A DNA stretch of 64,000 nucleotides, taken from positions 8,558,001-8,622,000 of the forward strand of contig CM075992.1 in the NCBI GenBank assembly GCA_038087875.1, in the 5' to 3' direction. The notes under the pieces were generated by a model. It was not told the DNA's origin and made no database searches. It worked only from the letters and a program-made list of their open reading frames with translations. This DNA comes from Malacoraja senta. Its lineage: Eukaryota. Below are positions 1 through 62,134 of the stretch, piece after piece; the stretch's first letter is position 1, and every line of letters starts with the position of its first letter. Made by a program: the position numbers and the translations under genes.

Positions 1-1551
1 AAATCCCCTGGGCCTGGTGGTCTGCATCCCAGGGTACCTCAGGAGTGGCTCTAGATATCGTGGATGCATTGGAGTTCATTTTCCAATGTTCTACAGATTC
101 ACGATTAGTCAATGTGGATTGAAGGGTAGCTAATATTATGCTACTTTTTAAGAAAGGTGTGAGAGACGAAACAGGGAATTATAGACTAGTTCGCCTGACA
201 TCGGTGGTGGGGATGATGCTGCAGTCAATCATAAAAGGTGAAATAGCGGCACATTTGGATAGCAGAATGGGTCTGAGTCAGCATGGATTTACAAAGGGGA
301 AATCATGCTTGACTAATCTTCTGGAATGCTTTGATGATGTTACAAGGTAAATGGGCGAGGGGGGGCAGTGGATGTAGTGTACCTCGACTTTCAGAAAGCA
401 TTTCATAAGGTCCCACATAGGAGATTAGTTGGAAAAATTAGGGCACATGAAAGAAAGAGTAGGGATTAACGGGTCTCTTTCAGAATGTCAGGCAGTGACT
501 AATGGGGTACCGCAAGGCTTGGTGCTGGGACTGTAGCTATTTACAATATACATCAATGATTTAGATGCAGAGATTCAAAGCAACATTAGCAATTTTGCTG
601 ATAACACAAAACTGGGTGTCAGTGTGAACTGTGAGGAGAATGCTATGAGAATGCAGGGTGACTTGGACAGGTTTGGTGAGTGGGCAGATGCATGGCAGAT
701 GTAGCTTAATGTGGATAAATGTGTGTTTATCCACTTTGGTAGCAAAAACAGGAAGGCAGATTATTCTCTAAATGGTGTGATGTTGGGAAAAGGGGAAGTA
801 CAACGGGACCTGGGGGGGCTTTGTTCATCAGTCAATGAAATTAAGCATGCAGGTACAGCAGGTAGGGTCTCAACCCGAAACGTCGCCAGTTTCCTTCTCT
901 CCATAGATGCTGCCTCACCGCTGAGTTTCTCCAGCATTTTTGTCTACCTTTGATTATCCAGCATCTGCAGTTCCTTCTTAAACATGCATGTACAATAGGC
1001 AGTGAAGAAAGCGAATGGCATGTTGGCCTTCATATCAAGAGGAGCAAAGAGGTACTTCTACAGTTGTATAGGGCGCTATTGTGTGCAGTTTTGGTCGCCT
1101 AATTTGAGGAACGACATTATTGCCATTGAGAAAGTGCAGCGTAGGTTCACAAGGATAATTCCCGGGATGGCGGGACTGTCATATGCAGAGAGAATGGAGC
1201 GGCTGGGTTTGTGTACTCTGGAATTTAAAAGGATAAGAGCGGATCTTATTGAAATATAAGATTATTATGGATTTGGACATGCTAGAAGCAGGAAACGTGT
1301 TCTCGATGTTGGGGGAGTCCAAAACCAGGGGCCACAGTTTAAGAATAACGGGTAAGCCATGTAGAACGGAGATGAGGAAACACTTTTTCACAGAGAGTTG
1401 TGAGTCTGTGGAATTCTCTGCCTCAGAGGGCGGTGGAGGCCCGTTCGCTGGACACTTTCAAGTGAGAGCTAGATAGGGCTCTTGAAGATAGCGGAGTTAG
1501 GGGATATGGGGAGAAGGCAGGAACGGGGTACTGATTGTGGACGGTCAGCCA
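1..1551 (+). mobile_element. CR1 LINE fragment (RT region to 3' end), decayed; part of the defensin segmental duplication
   Basis: Broken ORFs with CR1 motifs (QHGFTKGKSCLTNLL, YCVQFWSP, RTRGHSL); colinear with 8835-13250. Confidence 0.93.
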
Positions 1552-1743
1552 TTAACTAGATTCTATTCATTCCGTTGTAATGGTGAACAAGGGGAAGGGT
1601 TATTAAGATGCTATTAGTCACCAGGAGTTGTGTTTTCCGCATTGCACACAATATGTTATTCAACGTTTCCATAGTATTTCGCTGCATATGTAAATAAAAT
1701 GATTTCCCGACTGTTTATTCAGCTTCTATTTTCTGCCGTACAG

Positions 1744-1859
1744 CGCATTGCAGAAGAAAGCAAGGAGTGTGTAGGGTGGGTTGACGCAACAACTTTGAGG
1801 AAATCGGAACTTGCACCTACAAGATGAAATGTTGCAGAAGACGTTTTGGACATCGGTAA
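1744..1859 (+). pseudogene. Beta-defensin mature-peptide exon, type B copy 1, with in-frame TGA at the Cys3 position: AHCRRKQGVCRVG*RNNFEEIGTCTYKMKCCRRRFGHR*
   Basis: Same acceptor context as 8272 (ttttctgccgtacag). Spacing C-x6-C-x3-[TGA 1782-1784]-x9-C-x5-CC. TAA 1857-1859 overlaps AATAAA 1858-1863. Flanks are paralogous to about 8082-8535. Confidence 0.85.
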
Positions 1860-2016
1860 TAAAGTGTGCATAAATAAATAATAGTTGCATTATCACAGTT
1901 TCGCTTTTCCTTGCTTCTCTTTTGAGGTAATCCTGCTGGAAGTAACGTTTATCAGGAAAGAAGCGGAAATCGGCAACAGCTGTCAGAAAAGGCTGCAGTA
2001 CAGCATCTTCACACTA

Positions 2017-3535
2017 GACTTTGCCAAGAATATAAAGGAGGATAGTAAAAGCTTCTTTTGGTATGTGAAGAGGAAAAAGTAGTTAAGACCAAAGTTGGAC
2101 CCTTGAAGACTGAAAAAGGGTGAATTTATTATGGGGAATAAGGAAATGGCAGATAGGTTGAACAGGGACATTGGATCCATCTTCACTAAGGAGGACACAA
2201 ACAATCTTCCTGATGTACTATTGGCCAGAGGATCTGGGGTGGCGGAGGGACTGAAGGAAATCCACATTAGGCAGGAAATGGTGTTGGGTAGACTGATGGG
2301 TCTGAAGGCTGATAAATCCCCAGGGCCTGGTGGTCTGCATCCCAGGGTACCTCAGGAGTGACTCTAGATATCGTGGACGCATTGGAGTTGGTTTTCCAAT
2401 GTTCTACAGATTCACGATCAGTCAATGTGGATTGGAGGGTAACAAATATTATCCTACTTTTTAAGAAAGGTGTGAGAGAGCAAACAGGGAATTATAGACC
2501 AGTTTGTCTGACATCGGTGGAGGGGAAGATGCTGCAGTCAATCATAAAAGTTTAAATAGCGGCACATTTGGATAGCAGAATGGGTCTGAGTCAGCATGGA
2601 TTTACAAAGGGAAAATCATGCTTGACTAATCTTCTGGAATGTTTTGAGGATGTGACTAGGAAAATGGACAAGGAAGAGCCAGTGGATGTAGTGAACCTGG
2701 ATTTACAGAAAGCATTTCGTAAGGGTCCACATAGGAGATTAGCGGGCAAAATTTTCGCTCAGGAAAGAAAGAGTAGGGATTAACGGGTCCCGTTCAGAAT
2801 GGCAGGCAGTGACTAGTGGGGTACCACAAGGCTCAATGCTGGGACTGCAGCTATTTACAATATATATCAATGATTTAGATGAAGGGAATCAAAGCAACAT
2901 TAGCAATTTTGCAGATGACACAAAACTGGGGATCGGCGATGAGTGTGAACTGTGATGAGGATGCTATGAGAATGCAGGGTGACTTGGACAGGTTGGGTGA
3001 GTGGGCAGATGCATGGCAGATGTAGTTTGATGTGGACAAATGTGAGGTTACCCACTATGATAGCAAAAACAGGAAGGTAGATTATTATTTAAATGGTGTC
3101 AAGTTGGGAAAAGTAGAAGTACAACAGGATCTGGGGGGGTCCTTATTCATCAGTCAATGAAAGTAAGCATGCAGGTACAGCAGGAAGGGTCTCGACCCCA
3201 AACGTCGCCTATTTCCTTCGCTCCATAGATGCTGCCTCACCCGCTGAGTTTCTCCAGCATTTTTGTCTCCCTTCTATTATCCAGCATCTTGCAGTTACTT
3301 CTTATACATGCAGGTACATCAGGCAGTGAAGAAAGCTTATGGCATGTTGGCCTTCATATCAAGAGGAATCGAGTATAGGAGCAAAGAAGTACTTTGTATA
3401 GGGCGCTAGTGAGACCACACCTGGAGTATTGTGTGCCGTTTTGGTCGCCTAATTTGAGGAACGACATTATTGTCATTGAGAGAGTGCAGCGTAGGTTCAC
3501 AAGGTTTATTCCCGGGATGGCAGGTCTGTCATATG
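2017..3535 (+). mobile_element. CR1 LINE fragment downstream of defensin exon B1
   Basis: KSPGPGGLHPRV, NYRPV, QHGF motifs; same 5' junction (gactttgccaagaatataaagg) as at about 8537. Confidence 0.92.
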
Positions 3536-4176
3536 ATTCTCTTCTCTTTAGGACCTCTCTAATGATATCTGTCATTGATGTATCTTGACGATGAACATGC
3601 CGACAGACGGAGTGTACAGTTAACGAGTAATATTACACAATCAGAGACACAAACACGGCTGGCACGTCGGTCGAGAGGGAGATCACTAGTTGTATTAACT
3701 AAATCACAGAACATCCGTACAGTTTATGGATCATCTCCAGTGCACAAACCTCCTATAAATCTACCTTCAGTATTTACCCGTGAACAAAGAAATGTTCCAA
3801 GTGGCAATTCAGTTTTCCTCCTTCAGTGACAATATCACACCAACATAAACTTCGGAGGAAATTCAAACATGAGGGCGAAATACACTTTCGCTGACGCGAA
3901 CTCAATACCGATCGGGCGCAGAAATTTTAGATAATTACATAATTGTTATTGTTTTTGTTTTTATATTAACAGATCAGGAGAAACAAAGAATCTGGTAATG
4001 TTCCGGAATGCAGGATATAGTGAGAGGCAGGACGGAGTGAAATCAGTTTTGGCAAGAAAATGACACAAGGTCTCGATGGACGAAGAACCACTGGGACCAG
4101 ATAATCTTTCGGCCTGTGCACTAAATTCAGGGCCCCCCAAAATAAATCATACCATGACGTGTTTCCGCAGCGTTCA

Positions 4177-5720
4177 TTAACATTTTAGGTCATGAGAGAC
4201 GTCATGCCATTCGGCCCATCTAACGTGATCCGCCATTCCATCATGGCTGATCTGTTTTTCCTCCTCAACCCTTTCCCCTTGCAATCTCGCCAAAACGTTG
4301 GCACCGTTCCTAATGGGAAAAAACGAACTCCGCTTTAAATTTACCCAACGACTTGCCGCCGACAATTGGATTCCATAAATTCACCCGTGCTCTGGCTAAA
4401 TATATTCCTGCTCTTTTACATTCTAAACACAAGTAACTTTGTTTTGTGTCCACTGGCCCTAGATTCTCCCACGACTGGAAATATCATCTCCACATTCTAT
4501 CCATCCAGGTATTTCCTTATTCCGTAGGTTTCAATGCGGTGCCCCCTCATCCTTCTAATCTCCAGCGAGTACAGCGCACCGCCACAAATCACACCGCATA
4601 CGTTAACCCAGTCATCCCTCGAATCTTTCTCGTAAACTTCCCCTGGACCCTCTCCAACACCAGCACAGGTTTCCTCAGAGGGGGAGATTGGACTTTATTA
4701 CCTTCCATTACTGTGAGGAATGTGGAGAGCCGCTGTGGTGGATGTTTATGTTAAATTTTATTTGATGTGGTTGTGTGTCATACTGCTTTTCACTTGGATT
4801 GGCCGTATAGTGACTCGAATTTCACAGTACATTAATTGGTACATCTGACAATGAACCGATCTTGAATGTTGAATATGCTGCTCGAAACATCTCACAATAT
4901 GTCTGCCTCCTGATGCTTGGGTATATGTGCCCTGACCACCGCCTCATAAAGCATCAGCATTGCATTCTTGCTTTTATGTTCTAGTCCTCTCAAAATGAAT
5001 GCTAAATTTCCTTTCTGCCGGCCCAACCTATATATTTACCAAAGGTACACAAAAATGCTGGAGAAAGTCAGCGTGTGCAGCAGCATCTATGGAGCGAAGG
5101 AAATAGGCAACGTTTCGGGCCGAAACCCTTCTTCATTTGGGAATCCTTCACTAGAACCCCAATCCCATTGTACCTTCGATTTACGTCATTTAAAAATACG
5201 TCTTAGCTTTTCTTGCTGCTAAGAATGTGCAGATTGGCACACTTTGCTGCTTTGTATTCTCCTGCCACATCTGTGACCACTCTCCGAACCTGTGCAATAC
5301 CCTCAATAGACTGCCACCTACATCGACATCACCTGACCCTCCAGCTAGCTCTATCGGATCCGCAAACGGTCACAGCCATCACGTCCACCATCCAGATCAT
5401 GAACACACAACGCAAATGGTAGCGGACCCAACACCGACCGTCTGTGGAACACCACTGCGCACATGCAGCCAACTAGAAGGGGATCCCTTTTATTCCCATA
5501 CTTTGCCTTCTGCCAGTCACCCAATAGACTATCAATGCTGGTAATTTGCCTCCAATACCACGGTCTCCTTTGTTTCAAAGCCTCAAGTGCGTAAAATCTA
5601 AATAAACAACATCCAATGTCTCTCTTTCGTCTGTCCTTCTTGATACTTTGTCAAAGAATTCCAACAGATTTGTCAGGCAAGATTTGCCTTCAACATTGGC
5701 CCACTTCATGTCAGTTACGA
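4177..5720 (-). mobile_element. Old, fragmented CR1 LINE
   Basis: Minus-strand GKSCLTNLLEFF..VYLDF, SVLGP and CR1 3'-end similarity; heavily degraded. Confidence 0.7.
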
Positions 5721-5807
5721 CGTGGTCCATAAAAGACTGCCTTGGTTTTTGTTCATAGCCGTGAGGCCAAGAAGAATTTGGTAAAGTGAGGAACACAGGC
5801 ATGGTTA

Positions 5808-6605
5808 GTTTAAGAAGAAACTGCAGATGCTGGAAAAATCGAAGGAAGACAAAAAATGCTGGAGAAACTCAGCGGGTGAGGCAGTCTTGGAGCGAAGGAA
5901 TAGGTGACGTTTCGGGACGTGACCCTTCTTCAGACTGATGTGGGGGTGGGGGGACGGGAAGAAGAAAGGAAGAGGCGGAGACGGTGGGCTCAGGGAGAGC
6001 TGAGAAGGGGAAGGGAAAGAGGGAGAAAGCAAGGACTACCTGAAATTGGAGAAGTGAACGTTCATATCACTGGGGTGTAAACTACCCAAGCAAAATATGA
6101 GGTGTTGCTCCTCCAATTTACGGTGGGTCTCACTCTTACCATGGAGCACATGACAGAAAGGTCGGATTCGGAATGGCGGGGGGGGGGGGGGGGGGGGTTG
6201 AAGTGCTGAGCCACCGGGAGATCAGGTTAGTTGTTGCAACTGAGCGGAGGTGTTGGGCGAAGCGATCGCCAAGCCTACGCTTGGTCTCAACGATGTAGAG
6301 CAGCTGACACCTAGAGCAGCGGATGCAATCGATGAGGTTGGAGGAGGTGCAGGTGAACCTCTGCCGCACCTGGAAAGACTGCTTGGGTCCTTGGATGGTG
6401 TCAAGCGGGGAGATAAAGCGACAAGTGTAGCATTTCCTGCGGCTGCAAGGGAAAGTACCAGGAGAGGGGGTGGTTTTGGTGGGAAGGGACGAATTGACCA
6501 GGGAGTAACGGAGGGAGTGGTTTTTGGGAAAGCCGACAGGGGAGGAGATGGGAAGATGTGGCCAGTGGTGGGTTCCCATTGGAGGTGGCGAAAATGGGCA
6601 TGGCG
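5808..6605 (-). mobile_element. Penelope-like element fragment (GIY-YIG endonuclease end + terminal repeat)
   Basis: FTCTSSNLIDCIRCSRCQLLYIVETKRRLGDRFAQH matches the Penelope GIY-YIG region. Confidence 0.88.
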
Positions 6606-7471
6606 GTAAGTTGGGAAACTTATAAACCTGGCAGGTATTCAACATGACAGCTTTAATTAAAGGTTGGGAGGGTTGCGAAAGTGCGAAAGATTGGTAACTG
6701 GAAAACAGAGAGTGAGGGGTAGTGGGGGCAGCCATTCTCACCCCACTTGGGCCGACCACTGGAAGTGCCAAACCATAGCACTGCGGATCAAGTGCTAGTA
6801 AATAGGACCGCAGCAGAAGGAAAGTTATCATGGCCTTGGAATTGTGAGCCAATCGGCCACTTTCTGTGCACTTCGTGGCTCTCACTGTATGTTATTTAGT
6901 TTGAAACACACTGGCAATACATCTGACGATTGGAAACACGTGTACGATAAACACAAGCGGAGAAGTACTGCTAAAGAATGCACATCTTTGGCCTAAAGTC
7001 CTTTGCAAATACAATGCAATGGGAAGTAAGCTACGTTTTATGTACTGCTGTATGAATTGAGAACAGTTCTAATATTCTTGTTGAAGATCTAATTCATTGC
7101 GCATGGACACGTTGTAAGAATCACGTGGACACGAATGCCGTGTGGAAGGTGTCGTGTCTGGAAATTTGACATGCGGGTTTTTTTAGCGACTGGAGTCGCT
7201 GTGACGGGCCAATCTTGGAATGGGGAACAAGGACACATATTTATTGATGACCAGTTTATGTCAGCTAGGTAAACCATGCTCGCATCTGCTCGGTGTTCCT
7301 GTGCTGATGAGGAATAGTCAGACTGGCGGGCGCTTTCTGGAACAAATCAACCACACGCGTGCACCACCATGCTCGCCAACACAAGGCACCGCCTCACAAT
7401 ACATACAGAGCAAAGTCTACCATCAGACACTATATCTCCGCGCATTATTTGATCCTGATCGGGAAGCGAAG

Positions 7472-7544
7472 ATGACATCCGTGCTTCTTTTAATCTTTGC
7501 AGTGTTGCTCCTGACTCATCGGTTCGCAGAGGGATATGACTTCG
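7472..7544 (+). CDS. Beta-defensin exon 1 (signal peptide MTSVLLLIFAVLLLTHRFAEG + YDF)
   Basis: 24 codons + 1 nt, followed by a strong GTAAGG donor; hydrophobic core LLLIFAVLLL. Confidence 0.85.
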
Positions 7545-8381
7545 GTAAGGGACGATAAACATTTGTGTACACATACTCCACACATCGATGGTGTTTGGAG
7601 GGTGTTGATTTAAAGCTGTGCTCTTTAATATTGTGTGCAGTCCATGAAAAGAGCGTTCAAGGCCCTACCACACACACACACGCACACACACACCAACAAA
7701 TAAACACATACATGGAGGCCTAATTGGTTCAGTGTGGAACGTGAAAGGGATTACTGGATTCACATCACTCAAAAGCGGACGGAACCGTAGAGAAGAGCTG
7801 GGCAAACGTGCACGTGTCCACATAAGCATAATATATTACAATTCCATGCAATTTAAGAAAGATAATTGTTTTATATTTTCATTTCAAAGGGCGACTGGGC
7901 GACTGGGGTGCAAAGGAACGCATCCATCTCTCTTAATACAGATACTGTATCATTCCAGTGAATGTTCCCCGAACAGTATCAAAATATTTCCTCCTTCGCT
8001 GAGACATTCGCTGAGACTTTCTGCCAAATACAGCCGTCCTTTCCTTTGGACCTTCAAGAACAAATGCAAACATTCTACATTGACTAGATTCTATTCATTC
8101 CGTTGTAATCGTGAACAAGGGGAAGGGTTATTGAGATGCTATTAGTCACCAGAAGTTGTGTTTTCCGCATTGCACACAATATGTTATTCAACGCTTCCAT
8201 AGTATTTCGCTGCATATGTGCATAAGATGATTCACCGACTGTTTATTCAGCTTTTATTTTCTGCCGTACAGCGCAGTGCATACGAAGGCATGGATATTGT
8301 AAGATGGATTGCCCCCACCACTATATCCCAATCGGAGCTTGCGACGACTTAAGATGTTGCAAATATGTTGGACCGGTATAG
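7472..8381 (+). CDS. DEFB: Beta-defensin precursor, intact two-exon gene (exon 1 7472-7544, exon 2 8272-8381), 60 aa: MTSVLLLIFAVLLLTHRFAEGYDF/AQCIRRHGYCKMDCPHHYIPIGACDDLRCCKYVGPV*
   Basis: ATG at 7472 has a purine at -3 and starts a hydrophobic signal peptide ending A-E-G. Phase-1 donor G|GTAAGG at 7544/7545; pyrimidine tract and CAG acceptor at 8269-8271. The spliced product is in frame with C-x6-C-x3-C-x9-C-x4-CC spacing and GxC motifs. Stop TAG 8379-8381, AATAAA 8389-8394. Confidence 0.88.
8272..8381 (+). CDS. Beta-defensin exon 2 (mature six-cysteine peptide, type A)
   Basis: Acceptor ttttattttctgccgtacag; (G)CG CAG TGC ATA CGA AGG CAT GGA TAT TGT ... TGT TGC AAA ... GTA TAG. Confidence 0.9.
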
Positions 8382-8535
8382 TATTGGTAATAAAGTGTGC
8401 ATGAATAAATAATAGTTGCATTATCACAGCTTCGCTTTTCCTTCCTTCTCTTTTGAAGTAACCTGCTGGAAGTAAAGTTTATCAGGAAAGAAGCGGAAAT
8501 CGGCAACAACAGTCAGAAAAGGCTGCATTCACACT

Positions 8536-11500
8536 TGACTTTGCCAAGAATATAAAGGAGGATAGTAAAACGTTCATTAGGTATGTGAAGAGGGAAAAAG
8601 TAGTTAAGACCAAAGTTGGACCCTTGAAGACTGAAAAAGGGTGAATTTATTATGGGGAACAAGGAAATGGCAGATTAGTTGAACAGGGACTTTTGATCCA
8701 TCTTCACCAAGGAAGACACAAACAATCTTCCTGATGTACTATTGGCCAGAGGATCTGGGGTGGCGGAGGAACTGAAGGAAATCCACATTAGGCAGGAAAT
8801 GGTGTTGAGTAGACTGATGGGTCTGAAGGCTGATAAATCCCCAGGGCCTGGTGGTCTGCATCCCAGGGTACCTCAGGAGTGACTCTAGAAATCGTGGATG
8901 CATTGGAGTTCATTTTCCAATGTTCTACAGATTCACGATTAGTCAATGTGGATTGGAGGGTAGCTAATATTATCCTACTTTTTAAGAAAGGTGTGAGAGA
9001 CGAAACAGGGAATTATAGACTAGTTTGCCTGACATCGGTGGTGGGGAAGATGCTGCAGTCAATCATAAAAGATGAAATAGCGGCACATTTGGATAGCAGT
9101 AACAGGATCGATCTGAGTCAGCATGGATTTACAAAGGGGAAATCATGCTTGACTAATCTTCTGGAATGTTTTGATGATGTTACAAGGTAAATGGGCGAGG
9201 GGGAGCCAGTGGATGTAGTGTACCTCACCTTTCAGAAAGCATTTCATAAGGTCCCACATAGGAGATTAGTTGGAAAAATTAGGGCACATGAAAGAAAGAG
9301 TAGGGATTAACGGGTCCCTTTCAGAATGTCAGGCAGTGACTAATGGGGTACCACAAGGCTCGGTGGTGGGACTGTAGCTATTTACAATATACATCAATGA
9401 TTTAGATGCAGAGATTCAAAGCAACATTAGCAATTTTGCTGATAACACAAAACTGGGTGTCAGTGTGAACTGTGAGGAGAATGCTATGAGAATGCAGGGT
9501 GACTTGGATAGGTTTGGTGAGTGGGCAGATGCATGGCAGATGTAGTTTAATGTGGATAAATGTGTGGTTATCCACTTTGGTAGCAAAACAGGAAGGCAGA
9601 TTATTATCTAAATGGTGTCAAGTAGGGAAAAGGGGAAGTACAATGGGATCTGGGGGGTCCTTGTTCATCAGTCAATGAAAGTAAGCATGCAGGTACAGCA
9701 GGAAGGGTCTCAACCCAAAATGTCGCCAGTTTCCTTTTCTCCATAGATGTTGCCTCACCCGCTGAGTTTCTCCAGCATTTTTGTCTACCTTTGATTATCC
9801 AGCATCTGCAGTTCCTTCTTAAACATGCATGTACAACAGGCAGTGAAGAAAGCGAATGGCATGTTGGCCTTCATATCAAGAGGAGCAAAGAGGTACTTCT
9901 CCAGTTGTATAGGGCGCTAGTGAGACCACACCTGGAGTATTGTGTGCAGTTTTGGTCACCTAATTTGAGGAACAACATTATTGCCATTGAGAGAGTGCAG
10001 CGTAGGTTCACAAGGATAATTCCCGGGATGGCGGGACTGTCATATGCTGAGAGAATGGAGTGGCTGGGCTTGTGTACTCTGGAATTTAGAAGGATAAGAG
10101 CAGATCTTATTGAAACATATAAGATTATTATGGATTTGGACATGCTAGAAGCAGGAAACACGTTCTCGATGTTGGGGGAGTCCAGAACCAGGGGCCACAT
10201 TTTAAGAATAACGGGTAAGCCATGTAGAACGGAGGCTCAGTTACAGGTTGGTAGATATGACATTGTGGGGATTACTGGGACGTGGCTGCAGGAGAATCGG
10301 GCCTGGGAACTTAATATTCAGGGTTATACATCCTATAGAAAGGACAGGCAGGTGGGCAGAGGAGGGGGGGTAGATCTGCTGGTGAAGGATGGAATTCAGT
10401 CCCTTGCGAGGGAAGACATAGGGACTGACGAGGTAGAGTCAGTGTGGATTGAGTTGAGGAATTGTCAAGGCAAGAAGACATTAATTGGTGTTATTTACAG
10501 ACCCCCAAATAGTAGCCCGGATGTAGGGTGTAAGTTGCAGCAGGAGTTAAAACTGGCATGTAACAAAGGTAATGCCACTCTGGTGATGGGAGATTTCAAT
10601 ATGCAGGTAGACTGGGAAAATCAGGACCCCAAGAAAGAGAGTTTGTAGAATGCCTCTGAGATGGATTCTTAGAGCAGCTTGTAATGGAGCCGACCAGAGA
10701 AAAGGCAATTCTGGATTTAGTGTTGTCCAATGAACCAGATATGATAAGAGAATCCGAGGTAAAGGAACCGCTTGGAGGTAGTGATCATAATATGATTAGT
10801 TTTAACCTGCAATTTGAGAAGGAGAATGTTAAATCGGAAGTGGCAGTGATGCAGTTGAACAAAGGGGACTATGAAGGCATGAGAGGGGAGCTGGCCAAAG
10901 TAGACTGGAAAGGGATCCTAGCAGGAATGACGGTGGAACAGCAATGGCAGGAATTTCTGGGCATAATCCGGGAGATGCAGGATCATTTCATTCCAATAAG
11001 GAAGAAAGATTCTAAGGGGAGTAGGAGGCAACCATGGCTGACAAGAGAAGTTAGGGATAGAATAAAACTAAAAGAAAAGATGTATAACACAGCAAAGAGT
11101 AGCCGGAAGCCAGAGGATTGGGAAACCTTCATAGGACAACAGAAGGAAACAAAACGGGCAATACGGGCTGAAAAGATGAAGTACGAGGGGAAGCTGGCCA
11201 GGAATATAAAGGACAGTAAAAGCTTCTTTAGATATGTTAAGGGAAAAAGAGTTGCAAAGTCAAATGTGGGACCCTTGAAGGCAGACACGGGCGAAATTAT
11301 TATGGGCAACAAGGAAATGGCAGAAGAGTTGAATAGGTACTTCGGATCTGTCTTCACTAAGGAAGACACAAACAATCTCCCAGATGTACTGGAGGACAGA
11401 GGATCTAAGGGGGTAGAGGAACTGAAAGAAATTTTCATTAGGCGAGAAATAGTATTGGGTAGGCTAATGGGACTGAAGGATGATAAATCCCCTGGGCCTG

Positions 11501-13250
11501 ATGGTCTGCATCCCAGGGTCCTCGGGGACGTGGCTCTAGAAATATTGGACGCATTGGTGATCATTTTCCAATGTTCAATAGATTCAGGATCAGTTCCTGT
11601 GGATTGGAGGATAGCTAATGTTATCCCACTTTTCAAGAAAGGAGCGAGAGAGAAAACGGGGAATTACAGACCAGTTAGTCTGACTTCGGTGGTGGGAAAG
11701 ATGCTGGAGTCAATTATTAAAGAGGTAATAATGGGGCATTTGGATAGCAGTAAAAGGATTAGTCCAAGTCAACATGGATTTATGAAAGGGAAATCATGCT
11801 TGACTAATCTTCTGGACATTTTTGAGGATGTGACAAGTAAAATGGATGAAGGGGTGCCAGTGGATGTAGTGTATCTAGACTTTCAGAAAGCCTTTGATAA
11901 GGTCCCGCACAGGAGACTGGTGACTAAAATTAGAGCACATGGTATTGGGGGTAGGGTGTTGACATGGATAGAAAATTGGTTGGCAGACCGGAAGCAAAGA
12001 GTAGGAGTGAATGGGTCCTTTTCAGAATGGCAGGCAGTGGCGAGTGGACTGCCGCAAGGCTCGTTGTTGGGGCCGCAATTGTTTACCACATATATTAATG
12101 ATTTGGAAGAGGGGATTAGGAGCAACACTAGCAAGTTTGCAGATGACACAAAGCTGGGTGGCAGTGTGAACTGTGAAGAGGATGTTAGGAGGTTGTAGGG
12201 TGACCTGGACAGGTTGAGTGAGTGGGCAGATGCGTGGCAGATGCAGTATAATATAGATAAATGTGAGGTTATCCACTTTGGCGGCAAAAACAAGGGGGCA
12301 GATTATTATCTCAATGGGGTTAGGTTAGGTAAGGGGGAGGTACAGCGCGACCTGGGTGTCCTTGTACACCGGTCACTGAAAGTTGGCGTGTAGGTACAGC
12401 AGGCAGTGAAGAAAGCTAATGGAATGTTGGCCTTCATAACAAGAGGATTTCAGTATAGGAGTAAAGAAGTTCTTCTGCAGTTGTATAGGGCTCTGGTGAG
12501 ACCACATCTGGAGTATTGTATACAGTTTTGGTCTCCTAATTTGAGGAAGGACATCCTTGTGATTGAGGCAGTGAAGCGTAGGTTCACGAGATTGATCCCT
12601 GGGATGGCGGGACTGATATATGAGGAAAGATTGAAACGACTAGGCTTGTATTCACTGGAGTTTAGAAGGATGAGGGGAGATCTTATAGAAACATATAAAA
12701 TTATAAAAGGATTGGACAAGCTAGATGCAGGAAAAATGTTCCCAATGTTGGGCGAGTCCAGAACCAGGGGCCACAGTCTTAGAATAATGGGGAGGTCATT
12801 TAAGACTGAGGTGAGAAATAACTTTTTCACCCAGAGTTGTGAATTTATGGAATTCCCTGCCACAGAGGGCAGTGGAGGCCAAATCACTGGATGGATTTAA
12901 GAGAGAGTTAGATAGAGCGCTGGGGGCTAGTGGAGTCAAGGGATATGGGGAGAAGGCAGGCACGGGTTATTGATAGGGGACGATCAGCCTTGATCACAAT
13001 GAATGGCGGTGCAGGCTCGAAGGGCCGAATTGCCTGCTCCTGCACTAATTTTCTATGTTTCTATGTTTCTATGAGGAAACACTTTTTCACAGAGAGTTGT
13101 GAGACTGTGGAATTCTCTGCCTCAGAGGGCGGTGGAGGCCCGTTCTCTGGACACTTTCAAGAGAGAGCTAGATAGGGCTCTTAAAGATAGCAGAGTTAGG
13201 GGATATGGGGAGAAGGCAGGAATGGGGTACTGATTGTGGATGGTCAGCCA
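8536..13250 (+). mobile_element. Older CR1 fragment (8536-10234 and 13071-13250) interrupted by a younger CR1
   Basis: gtagaacggag|atgaggaaacac is contiguous in the paralogous copy near 1361-1382 but is split here. Confidence 0.9.
10235..13070 (+). mobile_element. Younger 5'-truncated CR1 LINE (endonuclease + RT ORF2, few lesions) with (TTTCTATG)n tail
   Basis: GITGTWL, GVIYRPP, MGDFN, SDH endonuclease motifs; 504-aa ORF 10684-12198 with KFADD; absent from the paralogous site. Confidence 0.95.
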
Positions 13251-13442
13251 TTTACTAGATTCTATTCATTCCATTGTAATCGCGAACAAGGGGAAGGGTT
13301 ATTAAGATGCTATTAGTCACCAGGAGTTGTGTTTTCCGCATTGCACACAATATGTTATTCAACGTTTCCATAGTATTTCGCTGCATATGTAAATAAAATG
13401 ATCTCCCGACTGTTTATTCAGCTTTTATTTTCTGCCGTACAG

Positions 13443-13612
13443 CGCAGTGCAGAAGAATGCAAGGAGTGTGTAGGGTGGGTTCACGCAACAACTTTGAGGA
13501 AATCGGAACTTGCACCTACAAGATGAAATGTTGCAGATTCACCACCGTCAGACTAAAGAAATCCCTCCTCATCTCCTTCCAAAAGGAACGTCCTTTTATT
13601 CTGAGGCTGTGA
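13443..13612 (+). CDS. Beta-defensin mature-peptide exon, type B copy 2: five Cys (Cys3->Ser), C-terminus read through into an antisense CR1 fragment; functional status uncertain
   Basis: Acceptor AG 13441-13442; AQCRRMQGVCRVGSRNNFEEIGTCTYKMKCCR then FTTVRLKKSLLISFQKERPFILRL* (TGA 13610-13612). Near-identical to the 1744 copy up to 13537. Confidence 0.7.
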
Positions 13613-14919
13613 CCGCTAGTCCTAGACTCTCCCACTAGTGGAAACATCCTCTCCACATCCACTCTATCCAGGCCTTTCACTATTCGGTAAGTTTCAAGCG
13701 GTCCACCCTCGTCCTTCTAAAGTGTTGATCGGCGCTATGTAAATGCAAGTTCAGTATCAGTGAATCTCTATCAGAATCGTATGTGGTGCTTTCACCCAAA
13801 GTGTGCGGTGCAAACTGACAGACAGACACAGGGATGTAATGCTGAGGCTCTATAAGGCGCTGGCAAGGCGGCATTTGGAGTATTGCGAGCAATTTTGGGC
13901 ACCATATCTGAGGAAGGATGTGCTGGCTCTGGAGAGGGTCCAGAGGAGAGTCTAGGACTAGAGGTCATAGCCTCAGAATTAAAGGACGTTCCTTTAGAAA
14001 GGAGACGAGGAGGAATTTCTTTAGTCAGAGGTTTCAAAGGTCGTTTATTGTCACATGTACCAATCAAGGTACAGTGATATGTAAATTACCATACAGCCAT
14101 ATGGGAAAAAAGCAACAAGACACACAACTACATAAAAGTTAACATAAACATCCACCACAGCAGATTCCCCACATTCCTCACTGTGATGGAAGGCAAAAAA
14201 GTACACTTCTTTCTCTTTATTCACCTGTCCTGTCCCTTTGAGTTACTCCAGTATTATTTCTCAATTTCCACTCCAGCAATGCAGCAGTCCAGAACATTCT
14301 TTTGGTAATGAGATGAAGAGGAATTTCTTTAGTCACAGGGTGGTGAATCTGTGGAATTCATTGCCATAAAAGGCTGTGGAGGCCAAGTCAGTGGATATTT
14401 TTAAGGCAGAGATAGATAGATTCTTGATTAGTACTAGCCCTTGTCATTTCCACCCTGGGGAGAAAGGTTCTGACTGTCTACCCTATCTATGTGTAGGAAG
14501 GAACTGCAGATGCTGGTTAAACTGAAGATAGACACATAATGCTGGAGTAACTCAGCGGGACAGGCAGCATCTCTGGAGAGAAGGAATGGGTGATGTTTCG
14601 GGTCGCTGCCTATTCTGCTGAATCACTCCAGCTTTTTGTGTCTATCTTCGGTGTAAAGCAGCATCTGCAGTTCCTTCCTCCATTCTGGTAAACCTCCTCT
14701 GCACCCTCTCCAGCGCCTCCACATTCTTCCTGTAATGGGGGTGACCAGAACTGCACACAATACTCCAAATGCAGCCTGACCGAGGTGCTATGAAGCTGCA
14801 AAGTGTTAAAGAGACGTGTTGCTCATTGCCAGCGTTGGTTTACCCTGCTGTCTGATGTTTAAAAATAGCATTTGAGTCCCAGTCCGACTCATCTTCCTGC
14901 GTTCCTGTTGCTCTGACCT

Positions 14920-19963: not shown

Positions 19964-22900
19964 CTATGTTTGTAATAATTCTATAAATGCAGACCACGTC
20001 AGGTGGAAGTGATCTGGTTTACCTGCTAGGAGGAGTCTTATCTCTTCTAGGTGTAATGTTTCAAACATATTTGAAATCCACATATTTATAGTTGGTATTG
20101 GAGCCTTCTTCCAAAATTTTAGAATTAGCTTTTTTCCAGTTATTAACCCATAGTCCATTAATTTCTTTTGAAACACATTTAGTTCTGGATCATCTTCCGT
20201 TATTCCGAAGATAATCCATTCTGCTTTGGGTATCAGTCTTGTTTTAAATAACTTTGTAAAGATTTCAAAAATTTCATTCCAAAATTTTTGAATTTTTGTA
20301 CAGAAGACAAATGAGTGCGCTATAGTTGCTTCTTGGGATTGACGTTTATCACAAATAGATGATACGTTTGGGAAAATTTTATGAATTTTAGTTTTCGAAT
20401 AATATAATCTATGTAAAATTTTAAATTGTATTAAAGTGTGTCTTACATTAATCGAGCATTTATGCACGTTTAATAAGTATTCATTCCAACTTTCCTTTGA
20501 AATGTTAATAGCTAACTCTTGTTCCCAGTCTCTTCTGATACCCTCCGTAGGTGGTATTTGTACATTTAAAATAATATTATACAAATATGATATTAAGTTT
20601 GCTGATTCCGCTTTTATCTGCATTGCCTCGTCCAATACATCTACTGGATTATTATAATGATCCAAATAGTCGCATATTTGAAAATATTTAAAATATTGAT
20701 TATTTCCGAGTTTATATTTTATTTGTAATTGTTGAAATGAAAGTAATTTTCCAGTTTCATACAAGTCACCAAGCGTTTTAATTCCTAGTCTATCCCATTG
20801 TGTATAAGCTTTATCTATAATAGAAGGACTAAACGAAGGGTTATTGACTATAGGTAATAAAAGTGATAAGTTTCTTAATTTTAAATTTTGTTTTATTTGT
20901 TTCCAAATACGGATTGTACTATGAATAATTGGGTTCTTATTATAGTTTATGTTATTCAGTTTCATTGGAGAGAGGAGGATCGCTCCAATGTTTCTAGAGG
21001 AGCAATCCTCTTTCTCCATTACAATCCAGTCTACTTGCTGGGCGGAGTTATCCATCAGTTGAATCATGTTTTTAATATTTACTGACCAATAATAATACAT
21101 AAAATTAGGTAGTGCTAGACCCCCCAATACTTTAGGTTTATTCAGATGGGTTTTTTGTATTCTATGTGATTTATAGTCCCATATAAAATTAGTGATATCT
21201 GAGTCGAGTTTTTTAAAAAACTTCTTAGGTAAGTATATAGGAATTGATTGAAATAGGTATAAAATTTGTGGTAAAAAGATCATTTTTATTGCGTTTATTC
21301 GGCCTATTAAAGACATCGGGAGCGTTTTCCAGAATTTAATTAATGTATTTAGTTTATTAAGTAGGGGGTCAAAATTTGCCCTGAACATACCTTGATATGT
21401 TCTGGTAATTTCGATTCCCAAATATTTAAATTTTTCTGTAGCTATTTCAAAAGGGAATTTTAAAAGATGTGTTGAATCTTTCGGTTTTATTGACATAATT
21501 TCACTTTTATTCCAATTTATTCTATATCCAGAAAAAGATCCGAAGTCTTCAATTAAATTTAATATGTTTGGTATAGTGATTTGGGGTTTTGTAATATACA
21601 ATAATATATCATCCGCGTATAAAGATATTTTATTATATGAGTCTTTAGTATTATATCCATGAATATCAGGGTGTATTCTAATTTTTTCTGCTAGCGGTTC
21701 AATAATGAGAGCAAACAGCTGTGGTGATAATGAGCATCCTTGTCTATTTCCCCTTGATAGTTGAAATTTCGAGGATAATATGTTATTAGTAAGTATTCTA
21801 GCTGTAGGTTTGTTATATAGTAACTTAATCCATAAAATAAAATTCTCTCCCAGTTGAAATTTTTGTAATACTTTATCCATATAATTCCATTGTACTTGAT
21901 CAAATGCTTTTTCAGCATCCAGCGAAATAATTGATAATTCTTGATCTTCAGATTTGTGTGAGTGCATTATGTTGAGTAGACGTCTCATATTATTAGAAGA
22001 GTATCTCTTAGGGATAAACCCTGTCTGATCTGGGTTTATTAATTTACTAATGTATTTACTTAATCTTCTAGCTAATGTTTTCGCTAATATTTTTTGATCT
22101 GTGTTTAACAATGCTATAGCTCTATATGAGCCAGGTTCTTCTAAATCTTTATTTTTCTTAGGTATTAATGTAATCGTTGATTCCGCTAATGTATCAGGTA
22201 GTATTCGTTTTTTAAAAGCGTATTGGTACATTTTTTGTAATCTTGGTATTATTTTATCATAAAAGCTTTTATAAAATTCATTAGTAAATCCATCAGGGCC
22301 TGGTGTTTTTCCATTTTTTAATGAGTTTATTGTATCTTCTAATTCCTTAATTGAGATTTGTGCACCCAGTTCCTCTTGTTCCTTCAGCTCTAACTTTGGA
22401 AGATTACAGGTATCCAAGAACTTTGTGATATTATTGGAATCAATTATCGTTTTAGATGTATACAAATTCTCGTAAAATTGCGCAAATCTTTTATTAATAT
22501 CCTTCGGTGTTGTTAATAATTCCCCTTTATCTGATTTGATCTTTGGTATAGTATGTTCCTTTTCTCGTTTTTTTAGCTGGCGAGCCAAAAGTTTATGCGG
22601 TTTATCCCCAAATTCAAAGTGCTCTTGTTTTGTAATTTGAAAAAGTCTTATAAGTTTGGCAGATAATAATTTATTTAATTTAAATTTTAAAATTATTATT
22701 TTATTATGTTTATCTATTGATGGATCTTTAGCATTATCTATATCCATTTGTCTAATAAGTTCTTCTAACTGTCTTTGTTCATTCTTATTCTTTTTATTTT
22801 GAAAAGCTTGATATGAAATTATAATACCCCTAATGTATGCTTTAAAAGATTCCCAAAGTAAAGTAGGCGATATATCTGAAGTATCATTTGTTTGAAAAAA

Positions 22901-23740
22901 GACCTCCATTTGTTCTTTTAAATATATACTCGCTTGTGGATCTTTTAAAATTTGAGAGTTAAATCTCCAGAATGATTTATTCTTAGACAATCCTTCCAGT
23001 TTTAAAAAGAAAGTTAGTGGAGAATGGTCTGAAATTGAATTTGTATGGTATATTGCATTAGATGTTTGGGGGATTAATTTTGTATCCAGCCGAAAGTAGT
23101 CTATACGTGAGTATGTCTTATGTACCATTGAGTAAAACGAGTATTCCCTGCCAGTTGGATTCACAATTCTCCAAACATCTGCTATATTAGTGTTATTTAT
23201 ATAGGTATTGAGGAGTTCCCCAGTTTTCGATTTCATATTCCCTCTCTGTTTTTGACTTGATTTATCTAAGTACGGATCTAAAACACAGTTAAAGTCTCCG
23301 CCTATTATAACATTTTGATAGTTTGACTCTGCAATTATATTGAAGATTTTATTGAAAAAGTGGGGGTTATCAAAGTTAGGGGCATATATATTTACCAAAG
23401 TAAGTGGAGTGTCATGGATTTCTCCATTAACTATTAGGTATCTCCCTTCTATATCTGTTATAATATTCTTTGCTTTAAATGGTATACCTTTTCTTATGAT
23501 AATTGACGTGCCTCTAGATTTTGAAGTAAATGAAGAGTGGTATGTTTGACCTATCCATTTCGCCCTCAGCCTAACTTGGTCCTGAGGTTTTAGGTGTGTT
23601 TCTTGTAGGAAGGTAATGTCAGAATTATACATTTTTAGCTGAGCTAATATCTTACCCCTTTTGATAGGTTCGTTAATACCTCTTATATTCCAACTACAAA
23701 ATGAGATTCCTCCTAGGTTCTTTTGTGTGGTGTCATGCAT
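19964..23740 (-). CDS. L1 ORF2: APE endonuclease + reverse transcriptase (1258 aa, uninterrupted)
   Basis: SWNIRG, LQETH, GGDFN, SRIDY, SDH (endonuclease); [22 protein letters not shown] (RT); C-terminal CDKR..H..C knuckle with the second Cys replaced by Arg. Confidence 0.95.
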   Translation of the reverse strand: MHDTTQKNLGGISFCSWNIRGINEPIKRGKILAQLKMYNSDITFLQETHLKPQDQVRLRAKWIGQTYHSSFTSKSRGTSIIIRKGIPFKAKNIITDIEGRYLIVNGEIHDTPLTLVNIYAPNFDNPHFFNKIFNIIAESNYQNVIIGGDFNCVLDPYLDKSSQKQRGNMKSKTGELLNTYINNTNIADVWRIVNPTGREYSFYSMVHKTYSRIDYFRLDTKLIPQTSNAIYHTNSISDHSPLTFFLKLEGLSKNKSFWRFNSQILKDPQASIYLKEQMEVFFQTNDTSDISPTLLWESFKAYIRGIIISYQAFQNKKNKNEQRQLEELIRQMDIDNAKDPSIDKHNKIIILKFKLNKLLSAKLIRLFQITKQEHFEFGDKPHKLLARQLKKREKEHTIPKIKSDKGELLTTPKDINKRFAQFYENLYTSKTIIDSNNITKFLDTCNLPKLELKEQEELGAQISIKELEDTINSLKNGKTPGPDGFTNEFYKSFYDKIIPRLQKMYQYAFKKRILPDTLAESTITLIPKKNKDLEEPGSYRAIALLNTDQKILAKTLARRLSKYISKLINPDQTGFIPKRYSSNNMRRLLNIMHSHKSEDQELSIISLDAEKAFDQVQWNYMDKVLQKFQLGENFILWIKLLYNKPTARILTNNILSSKFQLSRGNRQGCSLSPQLFALIIEPLAEKIRIHPDIHGYNTKDSYNKISLYADDILLYITKPQITIPNILNLIEDFGSFSGYRINWNKSEIMSIKPKDSTHLLKFPFEIATEKFKYLGIEITRTYQGMFRANFDPLLNKLNTLIKFWKTLPMSLIGRINAIKMIFLPQILYLFQSIPIYLPKKFFKKLDSDITNFIWDYKSHRIQKTHLNKPKVLGGLALPNFMYYYWSVNIKNMIQLMDNSAQQVDWIVMEKEDCSSRNIGAILLSPMKLNNINYNKNPIIHSTIRIWKQIKQNLKLRNLSLLLPIVNNPSFSPSIIDKAYTQWDRLGIKTLGDLYETGKLLSFQQLQIKYKLGNNQYFKYFQICDYLDHYNNPVDVLDEAMQIKAESANLISYLYNIILNVQIPPTEGIRRDWEQELAINISKESWNEYLLNVHKCSINVRHTLIQFKILHRLYYSKTKIHKIFPNVSSICDKRQSQEATIAHSFVFCTKIQKFWNEIFEIFTKLFKTRLIPKAEWIIFGITEDDPELNVFQKKLMDYGLITGKKLILKFWKKAPIPTINMWISNMFETLHLEEIRLLLAGKPDHFHLTWSAFIELLQT

Positions 23741-24543
23741 TTTGAATAATTATAGTACCTTTGAATCTTGTGGTGCGTCCATGTCCCAGGTCTTTAGGTA
23801 TTGGGGGAGTTTTTGAATTATTAACTTTTGCTGGTATGTCCATTTTACTCTTATCACTAAACACAAAACACAAACAAGTGATTTTATGTGATAAAAAAAA
23901 ACTAAAAAAGTGAGGCTACAGTGTCTGATATAGTCGGCACTGTAGCAAGTGTCCCACCTGTAGGTGGGAAAAAACCTTGTTTTGACTTCCATTGCGTTGT
24001 TACTCAAATAGCTCCACTCTCTTAGTTAATCATAACATATTAAAATATTAAAACGAGGCCTCACATTCAGATATATAATACAATTTTACCCTGATATTTC
24101 CTTATAACATATATATATATATCAGAGTTTAATTATTAAACCAATATTTTTGATTTCAATAAGAATCAACTGTTGGTTGAAGGGGTTAACGAGACGTGGT
24201 CCTGGACATAAGCCAGGAGCTCGTTTCTCATCCCCTCCTCCCGCTTATAGACAAGGTTACAATTTATTAAAAATTCATATTAGTATGTTAGTTCATTATT
24301 TTTTTTTGTTAGTATTCTAATCTAACCTGCATAACTTTTAAAGTTGTTAATAGGATAAGTTCTTACAATTGGTTATGATATTTTAATCAATAAGCAATTA
24401 TTTTCTGATTCATATTCCAACTGTTAAGTTGTTTACACGTTTTGAACAGAAAATGTCCTTGATTCAACATTCCAGAGATAACAGTGTAACTATCCCCAGA
24501 CAAAACATAGCTGAGAATTGTTCGGATCTGCCAAAGCTCCCTT

Positions 24544-25149
24544 TCATTTCTGTTTTTCAACGATCGTTTGGGCATATTTGAATGCGTCTTCAGGCTTAAC
24601 AAATGACTTTTCAAGACCATTAAAGGAAATACGCATTTTCGCGGGATAAAAAACCCCAAATCTGACCCCTTCTCTCCCTCTTAAAAGATCTTTAACCTTA
24701 TCAAATTTGTTTCTTTTTTGCACAATTTCATACGGGTAGTCCCTGAATATCTTAATAGTGTCCTTGTCCAGCCGCAATTGTACACCATATTTGATTTTAC
24801 TCATAACATATTCCAGTTCTGCAGTATCTCGAAATTTCACTATAATATGTCGTGGATAAGCTTTTCCCGCACCAGATCTTTTTCCAAATCTTGGGACACG
24901 ATGAGCCACTTCGATTTTCGGTTCCTTGGAAAGATTCAACAGTTGTTTCAACAAGCCCATGGCAAATTCACGTACCTGTTCCCCTTCTGCCCCCTCTGAA
25001 ACACCAAGAATTCTCAAATTCTGGCGTCTAGAACGAGCTTCCAGGTCCAGGCATTTGACTGAGACTTTCTCTAATTGAGTCCCCATTTGTAGTGACGCTT
25101 GTTCGTTTTCTCGCCTCATTTGCTCATGTTCTTGCCTCAATTTCGCCAT
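24544..25149 (-). CDS. L1 ORF1 C-terminal part (coiled coil / RRM / CTD)
   Basis: DLEARSRRQNLRILGVSEG, AHRV, IKIFRDYP, FYPAKMRI motifs typical of L1 ORF1p. Confidence 0.88.
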   Translation of the reverse strand: MAKLRQEHEQMRRENEQASLQMGTQLEKVSVKCLDLEARSRRQNLRILGVSEGAEGEQVREFAMGLLKQLLNLSKEPKIEVAHRVPRFGKRSGAGKAYPRHIIVKFRDTAELEYVMSKIKYGVQLRLDKDTIKIFRDYPYEIVQKRNKFDKVKDLLRGREGVRFGVFYPAKMRISFNGLEKSFVKPEDAFKYAQTIVEKQK

Positions 25150-26036
25150 GTCTTCAACCAGTCGAGCCGTGTTTTTCTCCTATCCTTGTAAATCTTCTCT
25201 GCGCCATTTCCAGCTTGACAACATATTTCCTGTAACACGGTGCCCAGAACTGAACACAGCACTCTAAATGCGGCCTCACCAACGTCTTGTACAACTGCAA
25301 CATGACCTCCCAACTTTGCTCAATGCCCTGATGGATAAAAGGTCAATGAACCAAAAGCCTTTTTGACCACCCTATCTACTTGTGGCCCCACTTTCAAGGA
25401 ACTATGTACCAGTAGCATGCCTGTCAAACAGTCTGAAGTAAGGCTCTCGACACGAAACGTCACCCATTCCTTCTCTCCGGAGATGCTGCCTGTCCCGCTG
25501 AGTTACTCCAGCATTTTGTGTCTACCTGCACTACCAGTCCCCCCTGCTCTACACCCTCCCCAGAGCCCTACCATTCACTGTGCAGCTTCTGCCCATGTTA
25601 GTGCTCTGGGTTTATGCTGGAATTTAGTTTTTAACTGTGGTCAGATCAAGAACTTCAGCATCATCGGTCGACCAAAACATCGTCACTCATTGAGCGAGTT
25701 ACCTCAGTGATAACAACTTGAAGCTTTGTGGATGGTACACACTCCAACGAAAGAGACGACGGGCGCTTTCAGCTTCCAGAAGCTTCCGACGACGGTGTCT
25801 TCTCGTTACTTCTGCGGTGGGGTAGGAGTGCAGCTTCTAGATGCTTCCAGAATGATCGAGAAGCAGCACATAGTGTGACGGGACGATATCTCTCGAGCCG
25901 GACTTCCCTGCGGTGAAATGGTTGGAGATTCGTTCAGGTCTTGCCTGCAAAGCAGAAGTGGGCGAGAGCGTTAATCTCATGAATGCGTCAAGAGATAAAG
26001 GAAATAGTGATGCTCTACAAACAACTCCAACAGGCA

Positions 26037-31268: not shown

Positions 31269-31552
31269 TCTCTCCGTTGCCCCCACAGGTTCTGTGCGCA
31301 GTGATCACCGCGACGCTGCACTATCTGTTCCTGGCGGTCTTCGTGTGGATGTTTCTAGAAGGCGTGCAGCTCCCCCTGCTGGTGGAGGTTGTGTTCGCCA
31401 CCAAGGTCCCGCTCGAGCGCCACATCTACTGGATCAGCTACGGACCGCCCGCCGCCGCCATCGTCGCCACCTGTGCCGGCGCCAACGGGCGCGGATTACG
31501 GCACCCACCACCACCGCGTTTGTACCTTCCCTGGGAACCATTTATCCACGGT

Positions 31553-48400: not shown

Positions 48401-49612
48401 CCCAGAGTTTGTTCTACTGGCCCAGCATGGCCCAAGACATCCGGGAGAGGGTCTCCGCTTGCTCTGTCTGCAATAGCCTCGCTCCCCATCAGCAACGGCA
48501 GCCGCTTCTGCAACAGCCTGCCCCCGAGCTGCCCTGGATGACCGTCGCCGCTGACATTTTTGAGTGGCGTGGCAAGCATTTCCTGGTTCTTGTGGACTCG
48601 TACTCCAGCTGGTTCGAGGTTGACCAGCTGCACTCCCTCACCTCTTCGGCCGTTATCGGGAGGCTGCGCCGCCACTTCGGAACCTTTGGCACCCCGGCAA
48701 GTCTTCAATCGGACAACGGCAGCCAGTTCTCGAGTGCCGAATTTCGGAGTTTCGCTGCCAGCTGGAACTTCCGACACTATACCAGCAGCCCCGGAGTACC
48801 CTCAAAGCAACGGCTTGGCAGAGCGCGCTGTCCGCAGTGCTAAGGACTTGCTGGAACATTGTAGACTGTCCCATTCTGACTTTTACCTGGCCCTCCTCAA
48901 CCTTCGAAACATTTGCCGCGACACTGCCTTGGGCTCCCCAGCACAACGGCTGATGTCTCGCACTACGAGACCTCCGATCCCGGTGACCCAGCGGTCCCTC
49001 GTTCCCTCTGTTCTCCAGCCCGCTGCTGTCCAGGAGCGCATTGCCCTCAAACATGATAACCAAAAGCGCTCCCACGACAAGTCCTGCCGTCCCCTCCCGC
49101 CTCTGTTCCCTGGCCAAGTCGTCCGGATGCAGTCCCCCTCCGGTCACCCCAGGCTTGCCATCGTCGTCGGTACTGCTGGTTCGCCGCGGTCCTATCTAGT
49201 CGACCATGACGGTACTATTTACCGCCGGTCCCGCCAACATCTGCAGCTTGTTAACGAGCCCCCACCTCCGCCTGCAGACCCCTTTTCCCCCCCACAGTCT
49301 GCCACGTTGCCTGCCCCTCCAGCCAGTTCTCCCTCGCCTGCCCGTCTTCCCGCTACTGCTCCTGCCTCCCCTGCTCCGTCTCCGTTTTCTCTTTCTCCTC
49401 CCGATTCCCCGGTTCTCTCACCCGCGCCTGCTCCTACTCATGTTCCTCCTGCAGAGGGGGGAGATGGCGAGCTGCGTACCCGGCCCGGGCGGGTGGTCAG
49501 GCCGCCTGTCCGTTATGGTGATTTTGCTTAACTGTTTGCTCACCTGCTCGTAGCGTATGAGATGTGGTCGCCCTGTCACTACGGTATTGCTTTTTATTTC
49601 CATGGGGAAAGA

Positions 49613-61830: not shown

Positions 61831-62134
61831 CTGCAACACAGCAGCAACGTAATTATAGTTCCAACTAGATTAAGTGGGACCCGTTGGGAGGGCTGGTCCC
61901 CCAATGCAATATTCCACCTCTCCACCAATTCTAATATTGGTCGTCAGTTTGGGGGGGGGGGGGTGTTTCTGGAATGCTAGTATGGGTGTTGTGGGCTGAA
62001 GGGACAGGTTTCCATAGGGCTAGTATGGACATTGTGGGCCGAATAGATACTTGGGCTGGCAGCTCAGTCTGGTGTGCTGGCAGCACTCACTCATGGCTGG
62101 TGGGCTGGCAGCTGACTCATGGCTATTCCTTGAA

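Follow-up and report, generated by a model that had tools for sequence, protein, structure and literature searches.

Does the single signal exon of this beta-defensin locus serve two alternative last exons, so that one promoter can make either a near-neutral peptide (from exon A) or a strongly cationic one (from exon B)? This was proposed in a preliminary description of the locus. The window that we analysed is a stretch of 64,000 nucleotides (G000:C16:8558001-8622000); local positions below count from its first letter, and all parts of the locus itself lie on the plus strand.

The first part of the locus is, judged by its sequence anatomy, an intact and ordinary two-exon beta-defensin gene. 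The coding part of exon 1 (7472..7544, 73 nt) starts with ATG, specifies a 24-codon signal/pro segment and ends at the phase-1 donor GTAAGG. Exon A (8272..8381), an intact six-cysteine beta-defensin exon, begins at a phase-1 acceptor at 8272 and ends with its stop at 8381; its cysteines are spaced C-x6-C-x3-C-x9-C-x4-CC, and it has 5 K/R, 3 D/E and 3 H. When joined through GT/AG in phase 1, the two exons give an open frame of 60 codons with six cysteines. Exon A scored 22.9 bits against PF00711, above the cut-off of 21, and its top Atlas matches, used as a lead only, were PF00711 at 0.84. Two AATAAA signals (8389..8409, at 8389 and 8404) directly follow its stop, and transcripts starting at exon 1 would be expected to splice to A and terminate at this pair. 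The PDB entries nearest to the defensin query were gallinacin-2 and spheniscin-2, with weak E-values. Protein databases gave no candidate relative for exon A or for the second exon, B2; the representative-set search returned one match, a 512-aa repetitive protein that carries no defensin family and was judged spurious.

The defensin-homologous part of B2 occupies 13443..13537, with a phase-1 acceptor at 13443. The preliminary description had B2 preceded by the intron tail and acceptor of exon A, and this proved correct: the first copy of the duplicated unit begins with the tail and acceptor at 8078..8271, its counterpart at 13249..13442 has an intact AG, and the two are 93.8% identical over 194 nt. 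Both acceptors are phase 1, and the 37 nt preceding them are identical (by our own estimate, chance would give this with a probability of about 0.09 at 6% divergence). No signal exon was detected between A and B2 by nhmmer, by a broader exon-1 profile or by an ATG...GT scan, which upholds the earlier deduction that B2 could be expressed solely through exon 1. The -38 yUnAy branch-point motif is absent from B1 (the upstream copy of this exon) and from B2, and also from the intact exon C.

As had been described, the interval between A and B2 consists of the short flank of A and LINE sequence, the latter with domain matches to RVT_1 and Exo_endo_phos; we take the first-unit LINE to be CR1 or CR1-like, a presumptive label and not a tool result. 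This LINE is 5'-truncated (8543..10235), has within it (about 9702-9826) a short interspersed repeat and resumes at 13072-13248. Nested in it is a second LINE (10236..13071) with endonuclease and RT remnants and a TTTCTATG tail, an insertion found only in the present copy of the locus.

B2 has five cysteines. The codon for the third (13481-13483) reads TCA (Ser), and the exon, which lacks the six-cysteine motif, scored 16.9 bits against PF00711, under the cut-off. Its similarity to B1 stops at 13537, beyond which antisense LINE sequence replaces its own end, the 3' UTR and the AATAAA pair. The last 24 codons of the open frame (13538..13612, stop at 13612) are read from this antisense LINE, and the whole frame counts 13 K/R and 3 D/E in 55 residues. 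The nearest polyadenylation signals downstream are an ATTAAA at 13978, 366 nt past the stop, and an AATAAA at 16917.

Eight close copies of the exon were found in the genome, spread over five genes. Three of these genes are local: G1 (exon 1 and A'), G2 (exon 1, C and the orphan B1) and G3, the present locus (exon 1, A and the orphan B2); the exon 1 sequences of these three are 91-98% alike. The other two, at a distance of about 1.5-1.7 Mb, are G4 (exon 1, D and the orphan B3) and G5 (exon 1 and a B-type exon, B4). The preliminary description had regarded a B exon with its own signal exon as evidence against a switch. Such an arrangement does occur, in G5, which is a paralog in the same genome rather than a gene of a related species and is frameshifted by a one-base insertion in B4. 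B1 (1550..1878, comprising the tail, the exon from 1744, and AATAAA at 1858 and 1873) is the second unit of G2; exon 1 and exon C of that gene adjoin the window's left edge on the outside. As reported before, B1 keeps its AATAAA signals and the same flank-to-LINE junction as A.

A novel junction between the LINE 3' region and the intron tail, with CATT microhomology, lies at 13244..13263 and is identical before B1 and B3. It connects the LINE that follows the first exon 2 with the position lying 194 nt ahead of the second exon 2's acceptor. The junction pattern had three matches in the genome, exactly before B1, B2 and B3 (a control pattern had none), and three identical junctions imply that the junction arose once and that all three orphans stem from one old event. 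The block of exon 1, X, LINE and B is accordingly present three times, with C, A or D as X. Alignment of G4 with the single-unit G5 gave one unit, a second unit and then common downstream DNA, collinear on both sides. This fits well the duplicated unit that the preliminary description had named: intron tail, exon, 3' flank and LINE. A single microhomology-mediated tandem duplication may have created the orphan arrangement; loss of the DNA between two genes in tandem would leave an indistinguishable junction. We rejected a clean LINE insertion or a 3' transduction because the junction falls about 100 nt short of the LINE tail and B1 holds DNA past its poly(A) signal.

None of the three orphan B exons is free of lesions. 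B1 has an in-frame TGA at Cys3 (1782-1784, codon 13 of 37), B2 has Ser at Cys3 and a lost 3' end, and in B3, where the frame is still open and AATAAA is retained, Cys4 is replaced by Arg. The Cys3 codon is TGC in B3 and B4, TGA in B1 and TCA in B2, so that on the shortest path a stop was gained and then lost in B2. The cationic charge once quoted for B1 (11 K/R versus 2 E) is arithmetically correct; the count, however, crosses the TGA, and B1 therefore cannot make that peptide. This stop, the five cysteines of B2, its LINE tail and the missing AATAAA pair had all been overlooked.

Assembly error was ruled out as the source of the lesions because short-read contigs carry the same changes: the TGA of B1 (0 differences) and the TCA of B2 in both runs, and the B3 change in X1 only. 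The two runs come from one study and possibly from the assembly's own sample, so that the contigs check the accuracy of the assembly and not the spread of the changes in the population. Aligned to positions 1200-14200, the runs (kind unrecorded) covered intron and intergenic DNA, and among the 15 of about 3800 joints that were listed only repeat-driven ones were seen.

The fate of G1 (C16:8546620-8550700) also bears on the question. It has an A-type exon, yet its 3' LINE and flank are of the B1 type, the LINE being 0.3-1.4% from that of B1. G1 is a chimera, in which unequal crossover of first and second units removed B and the gene stayed intact; in other words, B was lost from an intact sister gene.

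The orphan exons differ from one another no faster than their intron tails. Exon and tail differences were 3/93 versus 6/194 for B1/B2, 7/93 versus 11/194 for B1/B3 and 8/93 versus 11/194 for B2/B3 (p 0.45-1 over the three pairs). The distal exon thus has the rate of its tail, with the proviso that the counts are small and come from paralogs of one genome. There is no synonymous excess among the B copies (0-1 synonymous versus 3-7 non-synonymous changes per pair); 0 synonymous of 11 B changes (p 0.10) would also fit past positive selection on B, the counts being small (9-11 changes). The untouched AG acceptor of the orphans is expected by chance (p 0.86).

The exons that are linked to an exon 1 behave differently: 23/90 versus 7/191 for A/C, 33/90 versus 19/194 for A/D and 27/93 versus 15/191 for C/D (exon versus tail, p 1e-5 to 1e-7). 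They diverged 3.7-7 times faster than their own introns with all six cysteines kept, and the changes are mainly non-synonymous (A-C pN 0.30, pS 0.03). This pattern in A', C, A and D is a strong signature of positive selection. Cysteine-destroying changes numbered 0 in at least 50 among A, A', C and D, and B1-B3 showed 2 such events in at least 9 changes (Fisher p 0.021), a comparison that is partly circular, since the four exon-1-linked exons were chosen as intact and the frameshifted B4 was left out of the group. The neutral expectation for such events among B1-B3 is 1.5. As an observation in its own right, A' (C16:8547416), C (8557429), A (8566272) and D (10107113) show 25-37% exon divergence versus 4-10% in the intron tail.

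The ancestral exon is likely type B, which survives in dead copies, with A, C and D as its fast-evolving live descendants, because B4 is only 5-7 of 93 nt from the orphans while the promoter, tail and LINE of G5 group with D (bootstrap 94 and 92), an exon 18-21 nt away. The promoter-proximal exon would then have diversified under positive selection, and the orphan would have retained the ancestral B sequence while decaying neutrally.

We conclude, with a probability of about 0.78, that B2 is a partial copy of the last exon that is now dead, either unused or used at noise level, and the locus is likely ordinary birth-and-death debris, not a working two-peptide switch. The proposal that one promoter alternates between a neutral A and a cationic B fits poorly with lesions in 3/3 orphans, divergence at the intron rate, a B2 with no AATAAA nearby and a sister gene that has lost B.

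It is unlikely that the cassette once worked with an intact founding B and fell out of use separately in the B1/B2 and the B3 lineages, in which case relatives may keep intact versions. The ancestor of B1-B3 had six cysteine codons, an intact acceptor and AATAAA, its integrity being indicated by lesions that differ between lineages, and the block was retained through two further duplications. However, every fresh duplicate is intact at birth, and exon and tail rates are equal on all B branches, so that no period of constraint is visible.

About equally unlikely is that B2 is used today, exon 1 skipping A to give a five-cysteine, strongly cationic peptide with a LINE-derived tail. The phase-1 acceptor that matches that of A over 37 nt, the lack of any other exon 1 at hand, a frame open to 13612 with ATTAAA 366 nt past the stop, and the apparent loss of the stop at Cys3 (TGA to TCA) would all suit this reading, and the available parts of two sources offer precedents, namely shared-signal defensin isoforms (PMC4494069) and an active five-cysteine defensin (PMC2883079). 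Against this, the exon's own end and both its AATAAA are deleted while the two of A sit 5 kb upstream, B2 has diverged from the stop-bearing B1 at the intron rate, it falls below the PF00711 cut-off, and with 3 differences in all, a hit in one particular codon is nothing unusual. A spliced B2 would mean that a defensin switch with a LINE-derived tail had arisen recently and independently. We regard as very improbable the fuller version in which B2 was resurrected, the TGA at Cys3 turning to Ser, the antisense LINE supplying a cationic 24-residue tail and a 3' end, and exon 1 skipping A; if true, it would be an independent, recent origin of a DEFB110/119-type switch in a ray.

The large beta-defensin cluster to which B2 belongs spreads over C16:8.53-8.57 Mb and 10.09-10.87 Mb, C3249 and C1162. 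Our survey took in 800 kb of G000 in 80 stretches plus the window, leaving out C16:10650001-10790000 and most of C1162 and C3249. The stretches read hold 22 exon-2 copies and some 25 exon-1 regions; two copies on C1162 are probably the result of duplicate assembly. Among the 21 exon-2 copies that could be evaluated (for one, the upstream DNA lies outside the fetched region), 4 are without their own exon 1, every one of them lesioned; in these stretches each of the 14 intact copies has its own exon 1, and several exon-1 copies are broken or without a detected exon 2. Orphan halves are common debris in the cluster. An intact exon at C16:10865888 was considered as a fourth orphan and rejected, as an exon-1 region of its own came to light 3 kb upstream with the broader profile.

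Charge varies among the exons of the cluster: exon C is anionic (4 K/R, 6 D/E), whereas others are strongly cationic. Many members are broken. Eight-cysteine defensin exons with two extra N-terminal cysteines occur at C16:10374817-10374956 (-), at 10442401-10442537 (-) and in copies on C1162; their first intron is long (7.5-12.7 kb), and one copy has a stop at the centre of the cysteine motif. Elsewhere in the window, an adhesion GPCR E-like exon (7tm_2 region) at about 31286-31495 (+), which looks degraded on its 3' side, has its nearest named relatives in the batoids Narcine, Pristis and Mobula, which makes it likely that the host is a ray. A 1261-codon open frame at 19964-23749 (-), with another frame upstream at 24544-25179 (-), is presumably an L1/Tx1-like LINE ORF2 with its ORF1-like partner. 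Broken LTR-retrotransposon-like frames at 45533-49531 (+) are, we assume, gypsy-like (gag, RT, integrase-like), and a 48-bp tandem satellite at 62087-64000 continues past the window's end.

The databases searched contained no close protein relative of the cluster defensins. A literature search, with subscription papers and supplements outside it, found no account of a beta-defensin cluster in elasmobranchs, none of alternative last exons in the defensins of fish, and nothing on DEFB110/DEFB111 with a common first exon; the available part of PMC2373304 has nothing on splicing. The cluster therefore looks undescribed in the literature searched. Antimicrobial peptides have been studied less extensively in sharks than in teleosts, according to the part of PMC6795676 available, and the cluster is a putative source of ray antimicrobial peptides.

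In its general layout the locus resembles vertebrate beta-defensins (PF00711): a signal exon and a six-cysteine exon, a tandem cluster, fast change at the amino-acid level and many members that are broken. Birth-and-death evolution is the concept applied to such clusters. Beta-defensins are further characterised by 1-5, 2-4, 3-6 disulfides and by antimicrobial or chemotactic activity. The locus differs from the known vertebrate beta-defensins in that the host, judged by the nearest named relatives of the neighbouring GPCR exon, is a cartilaginous fish and no close protein relative was found. The mouse Defr1, a five-cysteine allele of Defb8, can be active, according to the available text of PMC2883079. 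The frames of B2 and B3 likewise miss one canonical cysteine, but Defr1 is a whole gene whose activity was tested, whereas B2 has neither its own exon 1 nor its own 3' end. As a likely dead exon, B2 itself matters little, being an orphan in a fast-turnover defensin cluster. The locus nevertheless offers a clean natural control, in which the ancestral peptide is preserved, fossil-like, in dead copies and the live sisters diverge.

The closest comparison is with human DEFB110 and DEFB119, for which a shared signal with an alternative last exon is a mechanism already published, as far as the accessible part of PMC4494069 goes: the signal peptide is shared, alternative splicing at the 3' end exchanges the Cys-rich domain, both exons are given as spliced isoforms, and the pattern is conserved between paralogs duplicated in amniotes. 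The present locus similarly has one signal exon upstream of two homologous last exons of the same phase. Unlike in DEFB110 and DEFB119, however, the second exon here is young (about 6% from the sister tail), lesioned in all three copies, evolving neutrally and known from DNA alone. Conserved cysteines and an open frame in both last exons are not found (stop in B1, Ser in B2, Arg in B3), and the distal exon B2 is without its own 3' end, which B1 and B3 retain. What the locus shows is the raw material from which cassettes of the DEFB110/119 type could be made.
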